Positions 2,850 through 46,642 of a stretch of DNA of 64,000 nucleotides are shown piece after piece. A program made the translations under genes and the position numbers. The stretch lies in NCBI GenBank assembly GCA_028280605.1, contig JANQLL010000164.1, positions 99 to 64,098 on the forward strand. Direction: 5' to 3'. Below the pieces are notes generated by a model. The model made no database searches. It was not told the DNA's origin and saw only the letters and a list, made by a program, of their open reading frames with translations. The stretch is from Candidatus Gastranaerophilales bacterium. GTDB taxonomy: Bacteria; Cyanobacteriota; Vampirovibrionia; Gastranaerophilales; JANQFW01. Positions within the stretch are counted from its first letter, which is position 1. Every line of letters starts with the position of its first letter.

Positions 2850-3071
2850 TTTTTTTCCAATCTTGATTGTCTAGTCACCATTTTATATTATATAGAATAT
2901 TATCCATCATAAATGAAATTTTTGTTATTATTTCCTTATATTTCTTTGTATAGTTTACAATTTTTAATTATTATATCTTATAATGTAGAAATAGTAAAAA
3001 TTTACTTAATAAATTTAGTGGTGAGCAAGCCCAAAAACAATCTCCCCCTTGCTAACAGGAATAACCTTAAT

Positions 3072-3602: not shown

Positions 3603-4544
3603 CTAATCTATTTTTATTTTAAAAACTTCAAGTTCATCATTGTTAATATTACAAATACCTTTAGAATCAAATAAATATGTGCCGCTTGGCGCAAACTTAA
3701 CACCTTCTTCCAGTTCCTCAGCCTCATATTTTTTCTTAAAAATATCACTTACAGTAACTTCGTTATCTCCGCTTAAAGCCAAAATTTTTGAGGTTACATC
3801 CAGATCTACTTCCTGATTATTTCTATTATAGTTGCAATGGCAACCTACAGAATAATTTACTCTCAAGCTCTGGTCAAGTACTTCTTTATTGATCTCAGCC
3901 ACTCTGCTTTTTATAAACTTTGCATATCCAATAGCTTTTCTTGTATCTGTAAATAAAAATCTGAATGTATTGTCTTCACCTTGAAAGTCAGGATATCTTT
4001 CTGCATTGTATTCTTTTGCCGCAGTTTCTGCCGTTCCATTTATTAGACCGTTAACTATACTCTGAGTAAAGAAATCTTCTTCTGAGTTATATAAATAAGA
4101 GTCAGGACTATCGCTTTTTTTCAATTTTAAAATAAAATATATTACCTTGTGGTCTTTCAAGTCCTGTATTTCGCGTTGTTGTTTTTCTTCCATTGCTTGC
4201 TGCTGTATTACTTGCTGTTTTTTTAATTTAATTGCATCATATTTTAATTCTAGTTTTTTTATTCCTTTTCTTATATAACACAGGGATACAGAAGCTCCCA
4301 TAAACACAAATCCTAATATAACAGGAGAAAAATCTATAACTAAGCCTTTATCTTCTATTTGTATGTCAATAATACTTCTGATTATCGCCAAAGGTTGATT
4401 TAAAACAGTTTCAAACAAAGTTAACACAGACCTTAATGCATCAAGGTTTATCAATGAAATAAACCAATAGAAAAATATCAATGGAACTACTAACATCAAT
4501 AGTGCTTCAATTATTTTGATGAAATTTTTAAGAAGTTTAAGCAT
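3603..4544 (-). CDS. Membrane-anchored hypothetical protein with a possible degenerate cyclase-homology-like C-terminal domain
   Basis: 313 aa. Two or three N-terminal hydrophobic helices and a Gln/Lys coiled coil. The C-terminal ~170 aa loosely follow a class III cyclase fold pattern but lack the metal-binding Asp residues. Confidence 0.45.
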   Translation of the reverse strand: MLKLLKNFIKIIEALLMLVVPLIFFYWFISLINLDALRSVLTLFETVLNQPLAIIRSIIDIQIEDKGLVIDFSPVILGFVFMGASVSLCYIRKGIKKLELKYDAIKLKKQQVIQQQAMEEKQQREIQDLKDHKVIYFILKLKKSDSPDSYLYNSEEDFFTQSIVNGLINGTAETAAKEYNAERYPDFQGEDNTFRFLFTDTRKAIGYAKFIKSRVAEINKEVLDQSLRVNYSVGCHCNYNRNNQEVDLDVTSKILALSGDNEVTVSDIFKKKYEAEELEEGVKFAPSGTYLFDSKGICNINNDELEVFKIKID

Positions 4545-9043: not shown

Positions 9044-9937
9044 GTGAGCGTAACATTTCAGCAATTAATTCATAGATTAAACGAATATTGGTCAGATTAC
9101 GGCTGTATAATCCAGCAACCATATGACATAGAAAAAGGCGCAAGCACCATGAATCCAGCAACTTTTTTAAGAGTGCTTGGTCCTGAACCATGGAATACTG
9201 CAATGGTTGAACCCTGCCGTAGGCCTACAGATGGCAGATACGGCGAAAATCCTAATAGATTGCAGCATTATTTTCAATATCAGGTTATATTAAAACCATC
9301 ACCTGAAGATGCTCAAGATGTTTATTTAAAAAGTCTTGAAGCTATAGGTATTGATTTAAGTGCACATGATATTAGATTTGTAGAGGATAATTGGGAGTCT
9401 CCTACATTAGGAGCCTGGGGTGTAGGCTGGGAATTTTGGCTTGATGGTATGGAAGTTACGCAGTTTACTTATTTTCAACAAGCGGGCGGTATTGATGTAA
9501 AACCTGTTGCTCTTGAGTTGACCTATGGATTAGAGCGTATAGCCATGTATCTTCAAAATTTAGACAGTGTTTACGATGTCCAGTGGAATGAAAACTTAAA
9601 ATACGGCGATATTTATCTGCAAAACGAAATCCAGCAATCTAAATATAACTTTGAGGTTTCTACAGCTGAAAGCTTATCTAAAGCATTTGACTTGTACAGT
9701 AAAGAAGTTGATACTGCGATTGATGCAGAATTACCACTTCCGGCTTATGACTGTGTTCTAAAATGTTCACATACCTTCAACCTTCTTGATGCAAGAGGTG
9801 TTATAAGCAAAGATGAACGTACAAATTTTATCAACAGAATAAGACGAATGGCAGAAAAAGTAGCTAAAATGTATGTTCAGCAAAGAGAAGAAATGGGGTA
9901 CCCGCTTCTTAAGAAAAACAATAAAGTTGGAGTTTAA
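9044..9937 (+). CDS. glyQ: Glycine-tRNA ligase alpha subunit
   Basis: 297 aa with a GTG start. FQQLI..YW...GC...QPYD..(K)GA(S)T..P.TFLR and the rest of the protein match GlyQ closely. Confidence 0.93.
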
Positions 9938-19281: not shown

Positions 19282-19659
19282 TGTATTTCTCCAGGAGCCA
19301 AATTAGCTCTTTGTTCTGTTCAAGTTTAAGAGAATCATATTAATTAAATTACTTTATTCAAAAAAATTAAAACCTCAATAAGGTAATATAAAAGTTTAAT
19401 TAAAGAGTAAATTTTTTTAAATATTAATAGTTGCAACTGATAACTCTGAATCTAGTTGAATCTTTGCTTCTCTGTAGTCTTTCTGCAGATTTAAAAATTT
19501 TTCCATTTGTTAATTACGGCTATATAAAATATTAGTAATTAGTTTATAAAAAAAATAAAAAATTCTTGAACAAAAAAATAACTAAATTATTCGTCTATAA
19601 CAGACAATAGGGGCATAGAAATTTTATTAGTTTTTTCTAAAATCGATTTAATATACTCC

Positions 19660-19740
19660 CTCTAAAATACTTTTCAGATTATTAAATCGAGTTAAAGTTA
19701 ATAAAATAAACTATTCTCTGAAAAGAGTAATCTGAAATTC
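19660..19740 (+). repeat. Copy A of a ~60-80 bp hairpin-forming intergenic repeat, 33 nt upstream of the hydrogenase operon
   Basis: CTCTAAAATACTTTTCAGATTATT...CTATTCTCTGAAAAGAGTAATCTGAAATTC. CTTTTCAGA is complementary to TCTGAAAAG. 69/79 identical (hand count, ungapped) to copy B on the opposite strand. Confidence 0.8.
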
Positions 19741-19773
19741 AATTGATGAGCAGTATAAACAAAAGGAAAAACT

Positions 19774-23449: not shown

Positions 23450-25081
23450 CTAATAATGAGGCTTTTTCTTGTTTAATTCTTCTTTTTTGCTGTTATTTAT
23501 ATCTATTATATTATTATTTATCTGATTATTTTCATCATTATAAGTTTCTTCTATTTTATTTTCTTTTTTATTATCTTTTAAAATATCAATATTGCCTGCT
23601 GAAGCAGCATCGGCCACCTTCGCAACTTCGGATACTTCTTTAAAAATGCTTAAATTCTCCAGCTTAGAACTGACTTTTACTAATTTGAATTCTCCCCGTT
23701 TAATTTTTTTGTGCTTGCAAGAAGCAATATTTTCCAGTTTCCACTGTTTAGCTTCCTTCCTTGCCTCTTCGCAGCATTGTGCGACAAACTTGTTACGCTC
23801 TACGGCATGTAATTTAGCAGTTTTACGGCGTTTAGCTTTAATAACCCTTTGCTCATAATCGCGATTTTTGCAATCCCTGTAATACTCAAAGTGTTCATTA
23901 TACCTTTGTTCCTCCTGCTCAGGAGTTACCTGTTCATCTTCCCAGGTTTCATAACTGAAATATTTAATTTCATCTTCTTGATAGGGATCATAATATTTGT
24001 CCCTAGCTAAAGCAAGATAATCATCTTTATAACAAATATTATGCTTGACTTTATCGAGTCTAAACTGGGACCGGCGCACGCAGCGAATTTTATATAGCAG
24101 TTCTTTGTGTGCGTCTATTATTCTAATCAGAGGGTGATCAGAGAAACCCTCTTTGTAACCAGGGTAGGATACATCACCGGGTTCTGAATTTGAGCAATCT
24201 TTAGGAATTGGCAAGTGTAGGATTTCTTTTACATTGCTGTAGCTTATCTGATCCGGGACTATATCCATAAATAAATCTTGATTGCAATGAATTTGCTTGA
24301 GTTCGCTCAATATTTTTCTGCTGATATTTGTCAGTTTTTTAAATAAATGAATATCTTCCGGGTTTCCTTCAGATAATTCGTAGTCATTGATTGACCATGG
24401 CCTTAGTACTACAAATTCTGTTGGAAGTTCTATATTATGGCGGGCCATTTTCTCCATCATCAGTGGTAATAATCTTGAAAATTTATGGCAATCATCGAAT
24501 TTATCTCTTATTATATCGATTTCTTCGAGTATTTTTTTATTTAATTCATTTAGTGCTTTTACTGCAAGAATCTGATGTGTGGAGAATTTAGCCCTTATTT
24601 CATCCGGTATTTTTGTGCTTACCAATGAATATGTTTTTTGGGCAATGTTTATTAAGCCTTCTGCTGTTGTTTTAAAGCTTGGGCTATCGGACTTGGGCTT
24701 TCTGGCATGCCATTTCTTGGCTGCTCTTCTTTCTTCAACGCTTTCTATTATGTTCATTGCAAAGGATTGAAGACCCATATTAATAAATTCCATCTTTTGA
24801 ATAAGGAATTTACTCCAGTTGCCTGTGCGCATTATATGCATGTATTCTTTGCCTACTGTATCAAACTGCATTTCTGTAGTTTTTATTGCTTCAAGAAAAC
24901 GCTCTTTATAGCCCATTAGGTTACAGTTCTTGGCAAAGCGCCGCAGAAGGACAATTTTGTTACGCAGTCTGTAATACAGGATGGATGCATATTTATCGTT
25001 GTCCTTTTGGCATGTGTCTTCAGTTTTTGCAGCTTGTTTAGTCAAGAGAATATAACCTTTAATCTTAATTCCGTGTAACAT
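23450..25081 (-). CDS. Hypothetical 543-aa protein (orphan; no recognisable domain)
   Basis: Long uninterrupted ORF in an AT-rich genome. Locally higher GC by eye. Charged Lys/Glu/Asn-rich C-terminal tail. An extended -10 (TGaTATAAT, complement of 25104-25112) lies upstream, but there is no obvious SD. Confidence 0.6.
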   Translation of the reverse strand: MLHGIKIKGYILLTKQAAKTEDTCQKDNDKYASILYYRLRNKIVLLRRFAKNCNLMGYKERFLEAIKTTEMQFDTVGKEYMHIMRTGNWSKFLIQKMEFINMGLQSFAMNIIESVEERRAAKKWHARKPKSDSPSFKTTAEGLINIAQKTYSLVSTKIPDEIRAKFSTHQILAVKALNELNKKILEEIDIIRDKFDDCHKFSRLLPLMMEKMARHNIELPTEFVVLRPWSINDYELSEGNPEDIHLFKKLTNISRKILSELKQIHCNQDLFMDIVPDQISYSNVKEILHLPIPKDCSNSEPGDVSYPGYKEGFSDHPLIRIIDAHKELLYKIRCVRRSQFRLDKVKHNICYKDDYLALARDKYYDPYQEDEIKYFSYETWEDEQVTPEQEEQRYNEHFEYYRDCKNRDYEQRVIKAKRRKTAKLHAVERNKFVAQCCEEARKEAKQWKLENIASCKHKKIKRGEFKLVKVSSKLENLSIFKEVSEVAKVADAASAGNIDILKDNKKENKIEETYNDENNQINNNIIDINNSKKEELNKKKPHY

Positions 25082-25214
25082 GCTTTTTGTTTGTTTAATT
25101 AATATTATATCAATTTTTGAATTTTAATGCATGCCGGATTTTGTGTTTTCCGAAAAAAGGACTATTTTGTTAAATTATTGTTACATATTTTGTTCAAACC
25201 ATTTATATGTGGGG

Positions 25215-25244
25215 TTATAAGTTTTAACAGTATTGCTCACTTGT
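25215..25244. repeat. Left copy of the 30-bp direct repeat flanking the higBA cassette
   Basis: TTATAAGTTTTAACAGTATTGCTCACTTGT compared with 25999-26028 TTATAAGTATTGACAGTATTGCTCATTTGT. 27/30 identical by hand count. Similarity stops abruptly on both sides. Confidence 0.8.
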
Positions 25245-25275
25245 AAATTATTTAATTAAAAAATATTTATTAATC

Positions 25276-25304
25276 TTGACACCTGATACGTAGCGGGTTA
25301 TAAT
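25276..25304 (+). promoter_or_regulatory. Consensus sigma70-type promoter of higBA (TTGACA-17 nt-TATAAT)
   Basis: TTGACA at 25276-25281, a 17-nt spacer, and TATAAT at 25299-25304. The family-typical higB start ATG ([10 protein letters not shown]) is at 25315. Confidence 0.7.
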
Positions 25305-25314
25305 GAACTGTATT

Positions 25315-25590
25315 ATGATAAAATCATTTAAACATAAAGGGCTGAAAAAATTCTTTTATAAAGGTGATACAAGCGGTTTAAATCCAAAACATATTAAAAA
25401 ATTAAGGTTTATTCTCAGGCGATTAAACAATGCTTGTATTATTCAAGATATGGATGCGGCAGGTTATCGACTTCATCCGTACAAAAATATACCTGATCTT
25501 TGGTCTGTTGATGTAAGCGGAAATTACAGAATATTATTCGAGTTTAGAAATGGTGATGCCTATGTTGTCGACTATTTAGATCCGCATTAG
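25315..25590 (+). CDS. higB: HigB-type (RelE/ParE superfamily, 'killer protein') toxin
   Basis: [14 protein letters not shown]...LHPYKN...[27 protein letters not shown] matches the HigB/plasmid-maintenance killer family. The ORF-track start at 25303 overlaps the -10 box, so the second ATG is preferred. Confidence 0.85.
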
Positions 25591-25606
25591 TAAAGGAGAA
25601 TTATCT

Positions 25607-25912
25607 ATGGTAGATTGTGAAAAATATGGAATAATGTTTGACCCTCCTCACGTAGGGGAAATAATCAAAGAAGAATATCTGGAGCCGTTAGGGCTTTCTG
25701 TAACAGAGGCAGCTTTAAACCTTGGCGTCTCAAGAAAAGCTTTCTCTGAGCTTTTAAATGGTAAAGCCGGAATGAGTATTAAGATGGCAATAAAATTAAG
25801 CAAAGGCTTTAACACCTCTGTGCAGTTTTGGCTAAACTTGCAGCAGGAGTATGACTTATATCATACACTCTTAAATTATACGGGTGATGATGTTAAAGCC
25901 ATGCGTGCATAA
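25607..25912 (+). CDS. higA: HigA-type antitoxin (XRE-family HTH)
   Basis: 101 aa. [45 protein letters not shown] is the HigA/VapI HTH pattern. AAGGAG RBS 8 nt upstream. Starts 16 nt after the higB stop. Confidence 0.85.
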
Positions 25913-25976
25913 ATTTAAATCTGTATTTCAGTAATAATAGCAAAGTAATAGGTATTTTTTTACTATTACCACATTT

Positions 25977-26864
25977 TTATGTTAAACGCCCTTTAGGCTT
26001 ATAAGTATTGACAGTATTGCTCATTTGTTTACAGCGACCGCTTATAGGTTTAGTCTTGCTAGCATGATTATTATAAACATCGTCTTTGGAAACACCAAGC
26101 TCTCGTAAATATAAAGCAGAAACTACACCAGTTCGGTCTTTTCCTGATTTACAGTGCACGTAAGCTCTTTTTTCATTATTTCTTACATCTTTCATTACAT
26201 TAAAGAATTTATCAATCTGCTCTTCTTCAGCTGTGCCTACAGGGCTAATAGGTATATGAACAAATTTAATCTTTAATTCATCAGCTATTTCTTTCTCTAT
26301 ATTGATATCTTCCTGAAATTCTGTGAGTGGGACCAGAAAATCTTTAAATTTTTCTCCTTCAATTCTACCGCCTGGGCATTGTAAACTTATTACTGTATCT
26401 ATTCCTAAGTTTTCCTTTAAGTACGTCATTCTATTGCGTGTTTCATTTTTCATATCACCTATAACTTCTTCAATTGAATTTTTCCCGTCAGGAATCTTAC
26501 CCTTATGGAATACCTGATAACTTCTGTTTCCGTCCTCATTATTTCTATCTGGAAGTTGCTTGGACGGGTCAAGGAAGAATGGACCTCTTACAAGATAGAC
26601 ATTTTTTTCATTTTTTGGAGCTACTGTATCTAAATTTATAAAATTTTTACCTAAATCTTCTCTTGCTTTTGTAAGAATTTCATCTGTGATTTGCTTTTCT
26701 ATACCTTTAAAAGCCAAAGGCTTGTAAAAAGGAGGATTAAAGCGTATATTATTTTGACTATTTGATTTTTGCCCTATAGATTCTTTATTTTTTGATGATA
26801 AAGCAGCATTGGTATTGTTAATCTTTTTTGGTGTAAGACCTTGAAAGGTAATTGAACTTAGCAT
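25977..26864 (-). CDS. Cys-based (CX5R) protein-tyrosine / phosphoinositide phosphatase-like protein
   Basis: 295 aa. P-loop VHCKSGKDRTG (HCxxGxxRT/G). Asn/Ser-rich N-terminal ~60 aa with no signal peptide. Confidence 0.7.
   Translation of the reverse strand: MLSSITFQGLTPKKINNTNAALSSKNKESIGQKSNSQNNIRFNPPFYKPLAFKGIEKQITDEILTKAREDLGKNFINLDTVAPKNEKNVYLVRGPFFLDPSKQLPDRNNEDGNRSYQVFHKGKIPDGKNSIEEVIGDMKNETRNRMTYLKENLGIDTVISLQCPGGRIEGEKFKDFLVPLTEFQEDINIEKEIADELKIKFVHIPISPVGTAEEEQIDKFFNVMKDVRNNEKRAYVHCKSGKDRTGVVSALYLRELGVSKDDVYNNHASKTKPISGRCKQMSNTVNTYKPKGRLT
25999..26028. repeat. Right copy of the 30-bp direct repeat, inside the last codons of the phosphatase gene
   Basis: See 25215-25244. On the minus strand this copy encodes ..QMSNTVNTYKP.., while the left copy would encode ..QVSNTVKTYNP.. 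Confidence 0.8.
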
Positions 26865-26944
26865 TGAATTTTGACTCCCTATTTTTTTGTTTTATATATT
26901 ACTCTCTACTTTTATTTATACTTATTATACAGGTTCTCAATTAA

Positions 26945-27023
26945 ATTTTAGATTACTCTTTTCAGAGTATAGGCTATTTCATTAGATTTAACACGATTGA
27001 ATAATCTGAAAAGTATTTTTGAG
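26945..27023 (-). repeat. Copy B of the hairpin-forming intergenic repeat (minus orientation), 80 nt upstream of the phosphatase start
   Basis: The reverse complement reads CTCAAAAATACTTTTCAGATTATTCAATCG...CTATACTCTGAAAAGAGTAATCTAAAAT. 69/79 identical to copy A. Confidence 0.8.
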
Positions 27024-27240
27024 TTAGTATAAAAAAATAATATAAAGATAAGTACAATAAAATTAAGTTTGAATAAAATAAAAATAAATATCAAATTTGT
27101 AAAAGTTAACAAAAAGTAAATATTTAAAAAGTTTTTTAGAGATAATATGCCATAAGTTTTTGACGTTATGGGGAATAAAATATGCATAAAAAAAACGCTA
27201 TAAATATAATAGCCAAAACCTGTAAGGATAAAATTAATAA

Positions 27241-44490: not shown

Positions 44491-44663
44491 AAATACCAAA
44501 ATAAATTAAATGAGTAGTCTAAAAACAGTTAATCATATAAATTCTGTATTTCTACTTAATTTTTACAGTTATCCTTTGAATATGTTCAACAGTTGTAGTA
44601 AAATTATTTATAAAATATATTAATAGCGCACCTCAGGAATAGAAAATATCAGGAGATTTTTTG

Positions 44664-45599
44664 ATGAGACGAGTGATGCCCCTTGAGTTAGTAGGTTTAA
44701 AAAAATTAGATTATGATTTATATGATGAAAGCGGCGAATTGATCTATACAAAAGGTGAAAGTATTACTCCTGAGTTCTTAATGGCACTAAATTTTAAAAA
44801 GATTTATAAACTTGACGAAGGTTTTTCTTTAGATTTTACTGAAATAAAATCTCTTGATAAATATTATCACCAAAATCAAATAACTATAATTTCTGAAAAA
44901 ATAGCCGTGGATTCTTTAAACCTTACCAGATCAGCATTGAAACAGGCTTATGACGGAAAAGTTGTTAGCAGAATAAACTGTGTAAAGGCCAGTCAGCTAA
45001 TATACAATGAAGTAGTAAAAAAAATTAATAAAATCAGTTGTATTTCAGAGTTAAGAATACACGATGATTACTTATTTTCTCATTCAGTTAATGTTGCATC
45101 ATTGAGTATTGCACTTGGCATAGCATTAGATCTTAATGAGAGTGAACTGAAAGAATTAGCAATTGCGGCATTTTTGCACGACATAGGTAAGATGAAAATT
45201 CCACTGGAAATTTTAAATAAACCTGGCATTCTTGCTCCTGATGAATTTAACATCATAAAAGATCATTCATTGTATGGATATGAAATGGTTTTAGAAATGG
45301 GCGAATCTGAAAAAGTTGCAAAAGTAGCCTTAGAGCACCAAGAAAGAAATAATGGCGAAGGTTATCCATTTAAACTAAAAGGTGATGATATTTCTTTATA
45401 TGGTCAAATTGTTGCTGTAACTGATGTATATGATGCTCTTGTTTCTGATAGAGTTTATAAAAAAGCGGTTGATTCTTCTGATGCTCTTCGAATAATGATG
45501 TTGGAAGGAGATAAATCGTTTAATCCTAAAATATTAAATTCTTTTGTGTACTTTGTAGTGGTACAAAATTCAAAACAAAACGTTGGTAATATAGATTAG
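44664..45599 (+). CDS. HD-GYP domain protein (putative c-di-GMP phosphodiesterase), paralog 1
   Basis: HSVNVASL, FLHDIGKMKIP, LEHQERNNGEGYP, VTDVYDALVSDRVYK. ATG 44664 preferred (AGGAG RBS 8 nt upstream; matches the paralog N-terminus MRRV..LELVG). Confidence 0.82.
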   Translation: MRRVMPLELVGLKKLDYDLYDESGELIYTKGESITPEFLMALNFKKIYKLDEGFSLDFTEIKSLDKYYHQNQITIISEKIAVDSLNLTRSALKQAYDGKVVSRINCVKASQLIYNEVVKKINKISCISELRIHDDYLFSHSVNVASLSIALGIALDLNESELKELAIAAFLHDIGKMKIPLEILNKPGILAPDEFNIIKDHSLYGYEMVLEMGESEKVAKVALEHQERNNGEGYPFKLKGDDISLYGQIVAVTDVYDALVSDRVYKKAVDSSDALRIMMLEGDKSFNPKILNSFVYFVVVQNSKQNVGNID

Positions 45600-45664
45600 C
45601 ATTTTAATTTATTAAAATTAATGTTATAATAGAAATAACATTTTATCTGGAGTAGGAGATTATC

Positions 45665-46642
45665 ATGAGAAGAGTTATAGCTCTTGAATTAGTAGGTCAA
45701 AGTCAATTAGAATATGACTTGTACGATGAAAATGGTGAAATTATATATAATAAAGGTGATATCTTATCTCCAGACTTCATAATGATGTTAAATTTTAAAA
45801 AGGTCTACAAGTCAGATGTACCGGCATGTACTAAAACTCAAGAAGTTCTAAAAGCTCAAGAAGAAACTACTGATAAAAAAGCAGAATTGCCTAAAGTAAA
45901 TATTATAAAATCTAAAGAAAAGCCTTCTCTTATATCGCCTACTGCAAAAAAATATACAATGGGTACCTCAAGAAGTATGGTATCGGCTATTTATGATGGC
46001 AAACTACCAAATGAAAAAGAGTGTGATAAAGCTGCTGATGTAATTATAGAAGAAGTCGTCACTAAATTAGATAATTTTGAATGTATTTCCCAATTAAGAG
46101 TTTATGATGAATATATTTACTCGCATTCTGTTAACGTTGCATCATTAAGTGCTGCATTAGGAAAAACATTAAACCTGGAACCGGAAAAAATAAAAGAACT
46201 AACACTAGGTGCTTTTTTACATGATATTGGTAAAATGAAAATTCCACGTGAAATTTTAAATAAACCTGGGGCTTTGACTAAAGACGAGTATCAGTATATT
46301 AAAAATCATGCAGTTTATGGTTATGAAATTGTAAAGGATATGGGGCAGCCTGAAGTCATAGCAAAAGTAGCATTAGAACATCAAGAACGATTTAATGGCG
46401 AAGGTTATCCAAATAACTTAAAAGGTAATGAGATATCATTGTACGGTCAAATATCTGCAATTTCTGATGTGTATGATGCACTTGTGTCTGAGCGTGTTTA
46501 TAAAAATTCTGTAATTTCTCCTGATGCATTAAGAGTTATGCTATCAGAAGGAAAAGATTCTTTTAATCCCGATATTTTAAATAAATTTGTATATCTTGCT
46601 GTTGTCCAGGCAACAAAGTCAAGTGGAGGATATACTTGTTAG
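45665..46642 (+). CDS. HD-GYP domain protein, paralog 2
   Basis: Same motifs (FLHDIGKMKIP, LEHQERFNGEGYP, ISDVYDALVSERVYK). The N-terminal 50 aa are highly similar to paralog 1. Confidence 0.82.
   Translation: MRRVIALELVGQSQLEYDLYDENGEIIYNKGDILSPDFIMMLNFKKVYKSDVPACTKTQEVLKAQEETTDKKAELPKVNIIKSKEKPSLISPTAKKYTMGTSRSMVSAIYDGKLPNEKECDKAADVIIEEVVTKLDNFECISQLRVYDEYIYSHSVNVASLSAALGKTLNLEPEKIKELTLGAFLHDIGKMKIPREILNKPGALTKDEYQYIKNHAVYGYEIVKDMGQPEVIAKVALEHQERFNGEGYPNNLKGNEISLYGQISAISDVYDALVSERVYKNSVISPDALRVMLSEGKDSFNPDILNKFVYLAVVQATKSSGGYTC

Follow-up and report, generated by a model that had tools for sequence, protein, structure and literature searches.

A higBA toxin-antitoxin cassette between direct repeats of a phosphatase gene end in Candidatus Gastranaerophilales: support for a discrete, laterally exchanged unit

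Restriction-modification (RM) units without mobility genes have been described as entering genomes by 'insertion with long target duplication' (Nobusato 2000, Gene 259:99; Furuta, Abe & Kobayashi 2010, NAR, PMC2853133). The repeats bracketing such units are long, variable and target-derived, at times overlapping the 3' end of a gene, as in an H. influenzae RM case in which 46-bp repeats extend 15 and 2 bp into gene ends; the authors hypothesized a cycle of insertion, amplification via the repeats, and release, and suggested DNA double-strand breakage as the common cause (PMC2853133). A review by the same group ascribes this mode to RM systems only (PMC3874152), and no report of long target duplication for toxin-antitoxin (TA) modules was found in the open-access literature searched. 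What has been described for TA modules is a minimal moving unit consisting of promoter/operator plus open reading frames (ORFs), without terminator, lying beside core genes and integrating intergenically (Ramisetty & Santhosh 2016, as cited in PMC5120126). The subject here is a higBA TA cassette found between direct repeats at the 3' end of a phosphatase gene, within a 64,000-nucleotide (64-kb) stretch of DNA, 'the window', from a Candidatus Gastranaerophilales bacterium, a Melainabacterium of gut type (GenBank assembly GCA_028280605.1, contig JANQLL010000164.1). Among known patterns, RM-type insertion with long target duplication would seem to be the closest to this higBA locus.

The cassette is bracketed by two copies of a direct repeat, at 25212–25244 (distal) and 25996–26028 (proximal), which are 29/33 identical without gaps at a spacing of 784 nt. 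An earlier note on this DNA, made from the letters alone, had placed two 30-mers here, and correctly so, with the ungapped similarity reaching 3 nt further, i.e., to 33 nt. A pattern search for further copies, as that note had proposed, returned exactly these two matches in the 64 kb (at most 3 mismatches), and dinucleotide shuffles matched the 30-mer pattern in 0/100 cases. That similarity ends sharply at the repeat boundaries, as also claimed, holds for the ungapped alignment, but a gapped continuation past the stop codon (GTTTAACATAAAAATGT) exists, if only marginally: its score was reached by shuffles 115/1000 times in the window, 19/1000 times in the orthologous contig L003 (see below), and 13/1000 times for the window against L003. 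A duplication longer than 33 nt was considered on this basis and set aside, the gapped alignment being suggestive and, alone, without significance.

Both copies read as phosphatase gene ends on the minus strand, just as the earlier note had it. The proximal copy lies inside the coding sequence (..QMSNTVNTYKP..) of a 295-aa ORF that ends CKQMSNTVNTYKPKGRLT* (asterisks marking stops). The distal copy, translated on that same strand, supplies a parallel C-terminus, QVSNTVKTYNPTYKWFEQNM*, as part of a relic reading frame (25181–25243), and this frame is probably the phosphatase gene end as it was prior to insertion, now displaced. Its ..SNTVKTYNPT is indeed closer to the phosphatase tail of a second orthologous contig, L002 (..SNTVKTYQPT), than to the window's own ..SNTVNTYKPK, and the distal copy as a whole is identical in L002. 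Since an independent Logan contig (L001/L007, SRR20820735) reproduces positions 25158–26150 at 100% identity, the arrangement of repeats and cassette is not a binning artefact.

Between the copies lie 751 nt (25245–25995) which hold a promoter, higB, higA and a stem-loop, i.e., addiction genes only and no mobility genes. An AT-rich 31-nt spacer (25245–25275) leads from the relic copy to the -35 box; it is common to three Gastranaerophilales lineages and absent from higBA relatives at other loci. There follows a perfect sigma-70 promoter, TTGACA-17-TATAAT (25276–25304, plus strand; 12/12 consensus positions), and it is exactly at its -35 box that homology of all family members starts in the family alignment. 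An operator-like palindrome, CCTGTTA-AG-TAACAGG, can be recognized in the promoter spacer of relatives, where it is conserved, and in degenerate form in the window.

The toxin gene, higB (25315–25590, plus strand), is intact and encodes 91 aa (PF05015, E=9e-18), with a full-length match to the Proteus vulgaris HigB structure 4mct (E=5e-20), terminal His included. Full-length relatives are 85–92% identical (L015, L018, L011, L019), or 73% in the case of L020. Its start by family alignment is the ATG at 25315 rather than the mechanical ORF start at 25303, which falls within the -10 box. Since that ATG lies only about 11 nt past the -10 box (8–11 nt in relatives), the higB mRNA probably is leaderless or nearly so. 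The antitoxin gene, higA (25607–25912, plus strand), starts 17 nt past the higB stop and encodes a 101-aa HTH-XRE repressor with an HTH_3 domain and matches to solved HigA/XRE antitoxin structures; the protein is 100% identical in L002 and 98% identical in L009. The gene order is thus toxin and then antitoxin, i.e., reversed. With a RelE-fold toxin and an HTH-XRE antitoxin encoded downstream, the pair is, judged by its sequence, a HigB/HigA type II TA system.

From the higA stop to the proximal repeat (25913–25995) run a 7-bp stem-loop and then the phosphatase stop and last codons (25977–25995), a segment 95% identical to L009 and replaced in L002 by unrelated sequence. The stem-loop (arms 25945–25951 and 25963–25969) stands between convergent genes. 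A terminator role for this 25945–25969 span was tried as an explanation and dropped, its stability being at shuffle level (z = -0.5) and a terminator scan making no call. The earlier note's description of a self-contained module of promoter, higB, higA and a small hairpin stands. No compositional anomaly marks the cassette, the GC content of which resembles that of its flanks.

The target gene (25977–26864, minus strand) encodes a phosphatase of the PTP/DSP family, as identified by Pfam domains. It is very rare, with four relatives in a clustered collection of 5.8 billion proteins, and their sources are a single project's metagenomes and a Candidatus Gastranaerophilales metagenome-assembled genome (MAG). 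Orthologs in L002 (86% identical) and in L003/L004/L009 (62%) show the same layout as the window, i.e., phosphatase, repeat, higA, remains of higB, promoter, second repeat, and an ortholog of a 543-aa ORF.

It is comparison of these orthologous loci which points to movement of the cassette. Relative to L009 the window is 76.6% identical over the phosphatase coding sequence, 77.7% over the distal flank and 79.2% over the 543-aa ORF, versus 95.2% over the 3' untranslated region (3'UTR) that follows higA, 94.4% over higA, 96.8% over the higB remnant, and 96.6% over promoter plus spacer. Expressed as mismatches, these are 247/1078 nt in the flanks versus 27/571 nt in the cassette (Fisher p = 2e-24). 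Selection does not explain this mosaic, since non-coding DNA and a dead higB are as conserved as is higA. The repeat copies themselves are of intermediate identity (76–79%) because the switch lies inside them: identity rises within the proximal copy, at about 26010–26020, and drops within the distal copy, at about 25226–25245.

What the window shares with the L003/L009 lineage is therefore a block that extends from mid-repeat to mid-repeat, that is, one full period, with its own phosphatase tail, NTY[K/E]PKGRLT*. The last ~10 codons of the window phosphatase (NTYKPKGRLT*) belong to that block, as do the promoter-side ~22 nt of the distal copy (25223–25244), which are kept in L003. Just outside of it is a lineage-specific 21-nt segment (25191–25211; 67% identity to L009) which separates the conserved cassette from the moderately conserved region upstream of the 543-aa ORF. 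The distal copy of L003 (..MSNTVK) resembles a window-type gene end and not L003's own (..MIETIN; 18/33 by hand comparison), and hence arrived along with the cassette. By these comparisons the cassette is younger than its flanks, with its joints in the repeats, which supports viewing higBA here as a discrete, laterally exchanged unit. That is also the portion of the earlier note's insertion model which survives, i.e., that the unit on entry brings a new end for the gene, with repeats marking the joints, as breakpoints in both copies suggest; the att-like or integron-like nature which it gave to that unit finds no support.

Related modules elsewhere inform upon what it is that moves. HigAs 84–92% identical to that of the window occur in unrelated contexts, i.e., beside HSDR_N, alanine dehydrogenase, ManC and McrBC genes, and the nucleotide homology of these relatives spans only 25270–25919 of the window (from the -35 box to the higA stop, ~0.65 kb), with both repeats outside. 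This core agrees with the E. coli minimal TA modules, the moving unit of which is promoter/operator plus two ORFs as cited in PMC5120126; unlike the unit studied here, those are described there as integrating into intergenic regions. Gene 3' ends are often where higBA units land. L015 is an example, with direct repeats of 43 nt (37/43) on both sides of a related module. Beside higA, the repeat makes up the final 14 codons and the stop codon of a convergent alanine dehydrogenase gene (SLNLAYKPLEELL*); beside the promoter, it encodes SLNLAYKPFEELI* and directly adjoins the upstream gene's stop, placed as the original gene end would be. Gaps between repeats and functional module are just 4 and 3 nt.

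More generally, 64 higBA loci from a metagenome scan, representing 43 independent contexts, were surveyed against positional controls, namely random module-sized segments taken from the same loci and from the window. A bracketing repeat at E<=1e-5 was present in 6/43 TA contexts versus 4/361 controls (odds ratio 14, p = 1.6e-4), and three of the four strong control cases trace to a single paralog pair, the HD_5 genes at 44661–46642. Bracketing repeats measure 181 nt in L077 (97% identical), at least 93 nt in L048 (97%), 78 nt in L018 (83%), 62 nt in L083, 43 nt in L015, 33 nt in the window lineage, and 19 nt in L098. As the repeats of these seven contexts are mutually unrelated in sequence and variable in length, they are target-derived, made anew at each site.

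Individual cases add detail. In L077 the 181-nt repeat (1386–1566 and 2891–3071) encloses an extra 178-aa ORF plus higBA. It starts with the last codons of an upstream DSP-phosphatase-like gene (..GTGLNN*), and the second copy, joined to higA in frame, gives HigA the same six C-terminal residues, so that a gene-end fusion has resulted from the duplication. Contigs L048 and L052 have in common the inter-repeat segment (L048 94–1103, with homology over 95–1091, i.e., to within ~12 nt at the right end) in flanks that are unrelated, so that the unit moves independently of the repeats. In L018 there are two tandem higBA-type modules (608–1183 and 1737–2335), the second being the close relative of the window's, and the 78-nt duplication consists of sequence past an antitoxin stop codon. 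With a McrBC system adjoining, this neighbourhood looks like a defence-island context.

Set beside the RM precedent, the window unit likewise is small, of addiction type, without mobility genes, and bracketed by variable, target-derived repeats that are unique in the region. In terms of the criteria used by Furuta and colleagues, the insert consists of addiction genes only and, at 751 nt, is well within 20 kb; the non-dispersed duplication of more than 30 bp is present at borderline length (33 nt, two copies within 64 kb); and repeats are variable and locus-specific, at 19–181 nt over seven higBA contexts. The differences are that the higBA toxin is an mRNA endonuclease and not a DNA-cleaving enzyme, that the repeat is short for the RM range, and that here a coding end is restored by the duplication, the protein C-terminus changing with it. 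The key RM criterion, furthermore, is a genome with an empty site, and none was found for higBA here. Since HigB cuts mRNA rather than DNA, the mode, if it is the same, would be independent of DNA breaks made by the cargo.

The explanation to which we incline, though only by a little, is that the unit came in by insertion with long target duplication and was then exchanged between orthologous sites by way of the repeats. A minimal higBA module (promoter/operator, toxin, antitoxin; a core of ~0.65 kb) would have entered the last codons of the phosphatase gene, duplicating a stretch of its target. That duplication would have rebuilt a functional gene end beside higA, leaving the old end, KTYNPTYKWFEQNM*, stranded past the higB promoter. 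The repeat copies then could serve as joints for block transfer between Gastranaerophilales lineages, with a circle excised via recombination between repeats re-integrating in a different genome at the matching gene end. A one-period block that runs from mid-repeat to mid-repeat is the product expected of re-integration of such a circle. We infer, that is, an order of events, a circular intermediate and an enzymology (host recombination or illegitimate joining, with no dedicated recombinase).

A number of points weigh against this explanation. None of the four phosphatase orthologs in the 5.8-billion-protein collection showed an empty site, and only three lineages carry the phosphatase with a readable flank, with the cassette in all of them; in a further ortholog, 51% identical, the contig ends 13 nt past the stop. 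Approaching the site from the 543-aa ORF was no more productive, one look-up returning nothing and the other matching a paralog elsewhere in the same MAG, and a genome scan for empty sites yielded zero new loci. The earlier note had named, as telling against insertion, orthologous loci of uniform arrangement with neither empty-site variants nor repeat conservation. The arrangement is in fact the same in all three orthologous lineages and no empty site is among them, but the repeat is conserved there. Of the 43 surveyed contexts, 37 are without a bracketing repeat, and the 33-nt repeat itself only just passes the >30 bp threshold applied to RM units. In the distant L077/L068/L090 group, as in L048/L060, the repeat sequence is found on differing sides of the TA module in different contigs, and in the former group the repeat could be travelling with the unit; neither comparison is built upon here. 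The recombinase screen took in 20 recombinase-sized ORFs from among the 50 window ORFs of at least 120 aa. Lastly, only a short, imperfect stretch of homology, about 14/18 by hand comparison, is available for re-integration at the L003 joint, which is poor for RecA-type recombination and better suited to a site-specific enzyme.

It is such an enzyme that is invoked by the main rival, in which the cassette is a non-autonomous site-specific element, similar to a cis-mobilizable element (CIME), the integrase-less derivative of tyrosine-integrase islands, or to a miniature island; it would carry an attP-like version of the phosphatase 3' end, and an integrase would act in trans, from elsewhere in the genome or from a helper. 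In essence this is the model of the earlier note, stripped of its integron label. Insertion at the 3' end of a gene or tRNA with provision of a replacement end is classic for tyrosine-integrase elements, and the resemblance extends to direct repeats at both junctions, one of them completing the target gene, to an old end on the far side, and to a block of one period, the same-phase mid-repeat block of two lineages having formed with a target of only that ~14/18 identity at the joint. Unlike those elements, the unit is just 0.8 kb, and no recombinase lies inside of it, the earlier note having said as much of an integrase, nor is there any integrase, transposase or other recombinase among the 20 ORFs screened, the neighbours being housekeeping genes (one 313-aa ORF, at 3603–4544, has no Pfam match). 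The window has no tRNA genes. The repeat has no dyad-symmetric core, with the best candidates at 6–7 of 9 positions being reached by 16–59% of shuffles. The repeat motif and close cassette relatives are absent from viral contigs, which carry distant HigAs only; a phage or plasmid-like vector was considered as well, and was set aside given that lack of the motif on viral contigs. A single att core does not recur at independent insertions, with the repeats of L015 (43 nt), L018 (78 nt) and the distant loci being unrelated, such that over their 19–181 nt range a different integrase would be called for each time. The 4- and 3-nt gaps of L015 leave no trace of a decayed larger island. On balance this rival appears improbable, if not negligibly so. 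Still further removed is the possibility of an integron TA cassette, with an attC site, which was captured outside of an array or at a secondary site. Compact, promoter-bearing higBA cassettes of about 0.7 kb are known in chromosomal integrons such as the Vibrio superintegrons, and one GTTRRRY motif (GTTAAAC, 25981) is present near the proximal end. No RYYYAAC core exists anywhere in 25150–26080 to partner it, however, and DNA folds of both strands at both ends are at shuffle level (z = -0.36 to +1.73), in keeping with the earlier note's failure to identify a convincing attC. The window unit is single, not part of a cassette array, with no attI and no IntI among the 20 ORFs screened; integron recombination, moreover, does not duplicate 33 nt of target. 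The integron proposal is effectively refuted and carries next to no probability, and neither as an integron cassette nor as a recognizable att-type element is the unit supported by what its sequence contains, with related modules bracketed by different repeats.

In the remaining rival, cassette and duplication would be ancestral to all three lineages, inherited vertically, with the cassette later homogenized by gene conversion or homologous replacement, or else kept similar by strong constraint, and the repeats would not be joints. In keeping with this, all three lineages share cassette site and junction architecture, there is no empty site in the data, and higA is under strong purifying selection (98–100% amino-acid identity). 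Constraint is insufficient, however, in that the spacer, the 3'UTR and the dead higB remnant, at 95–97%, show conservation equal to that of higA; nothing would make a conversion tract stop within a 33-nt repeat on both sides, a coincidence that we roughly estimate at below 1%; and the L003 distal copy fits a window-type gene end and not that of its own gene. Vertical inheritance with later homogenization accordingly seems a little less probable even than mobilization in trans of a site-specific element.

The relatives also differ from the window in ways that suggest later changes at the locus. Only in the window is higB intact. In L003 an in-frame internal deletion has left a 44-aa remnant ORF (9269–9403; 35 aa counted from the family start codon), and in L002, where the gene lies at 1464–1576, the deletion is a different and larger one (both intervals being equivalent to window 25315–25590), with HigA intact and 98–100% identical in both. 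This looks like independent, toxin-first decay which leaves behind an orphan antitoxin/repressor. The L002 phosphatase, of 328 aa, has a tail, KTYQPTDPFKIREKEN, with 35/39 nt in common with the relic copy, and continues into a different C-terminus that is 33 aa longer and ends PTDPFKIREKENKDNNVKMPYYAKHYFNKSISKEVI*. Between its proximal repeat and higA stop, ~165 nt of sequence unrelated to the window's (976–1141) replace the 3'UTR. Given both of these features, the proximal junction of L002 has undergone remodelling at least once.

As for other observations, the 543-aa ORF (23450–25081) has no Pfam domain and many homologs in related MAGs, including a paralog in the same MAG. Upstream of it (25082–25190), the stretch GGTTTRAACAAAAWATGTAACAATAATTTAACAAWATA is better conserved across lineages than the adjoining 21 nt, and may be either the promoter of the 543-aa ORF or old phosphatase 3'UTR. 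A 112-nt inverted repeat (19647–19758 and 26925–27036, 83% complementary) surrounds a 7.2-kb segment that comprises hydrogenase-like genes, the 543-aa ORF, the higBA cassette and the phosphatase gene. A copy of this sequence occurs in L009 upstream of a GAF histidine-kinase gene. Relative to that kinase, the phosphatase runs one way in the window's genome and the other way in L009, and an inversion between the 112-nt arms is suggested. ManC is the upstream neighbour of the phosphatase in L003/L009, and elsewhere (L016 5001–5312 and L017 1676–1987) a HigA 84% identical to the window's is encoded 18 nt past a ManC gene, with no HigB upstream, as an orphan antitoxin beside a CopG-like gene. The HD_5 genes at 44661–46642, two adjoining HD-domain paralogs, have a 146-nt stretch in common at 80% identity.

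How bare chromosomal TA pairs move, i.e., without a transposase, an integrase or attC, is unsettled in the literature searched. A general answer, offered as speculation that we would not expect to hold, is that minimal TA modules are mobile elements in their own right, entering with long target duplication, often rebuilding the gene end that they disrupt, and looping out as circles with one gene-end copy that homes to the same gene elsewhere, a cycle free of recombinases of its own or driven by those of the host, and distinct from that of integrons. If the present interpretation were confirmed, then the mobility mode of RM units would be extended to TA systems, and its mechanism would be placed with the host or with the incoming DNA and not with the cargo. 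The footprint of repeats offers a simple sequence signature by which TA insertions can be dated and traced, and as a side effect the insertion alters the C-terminus of the target protein.

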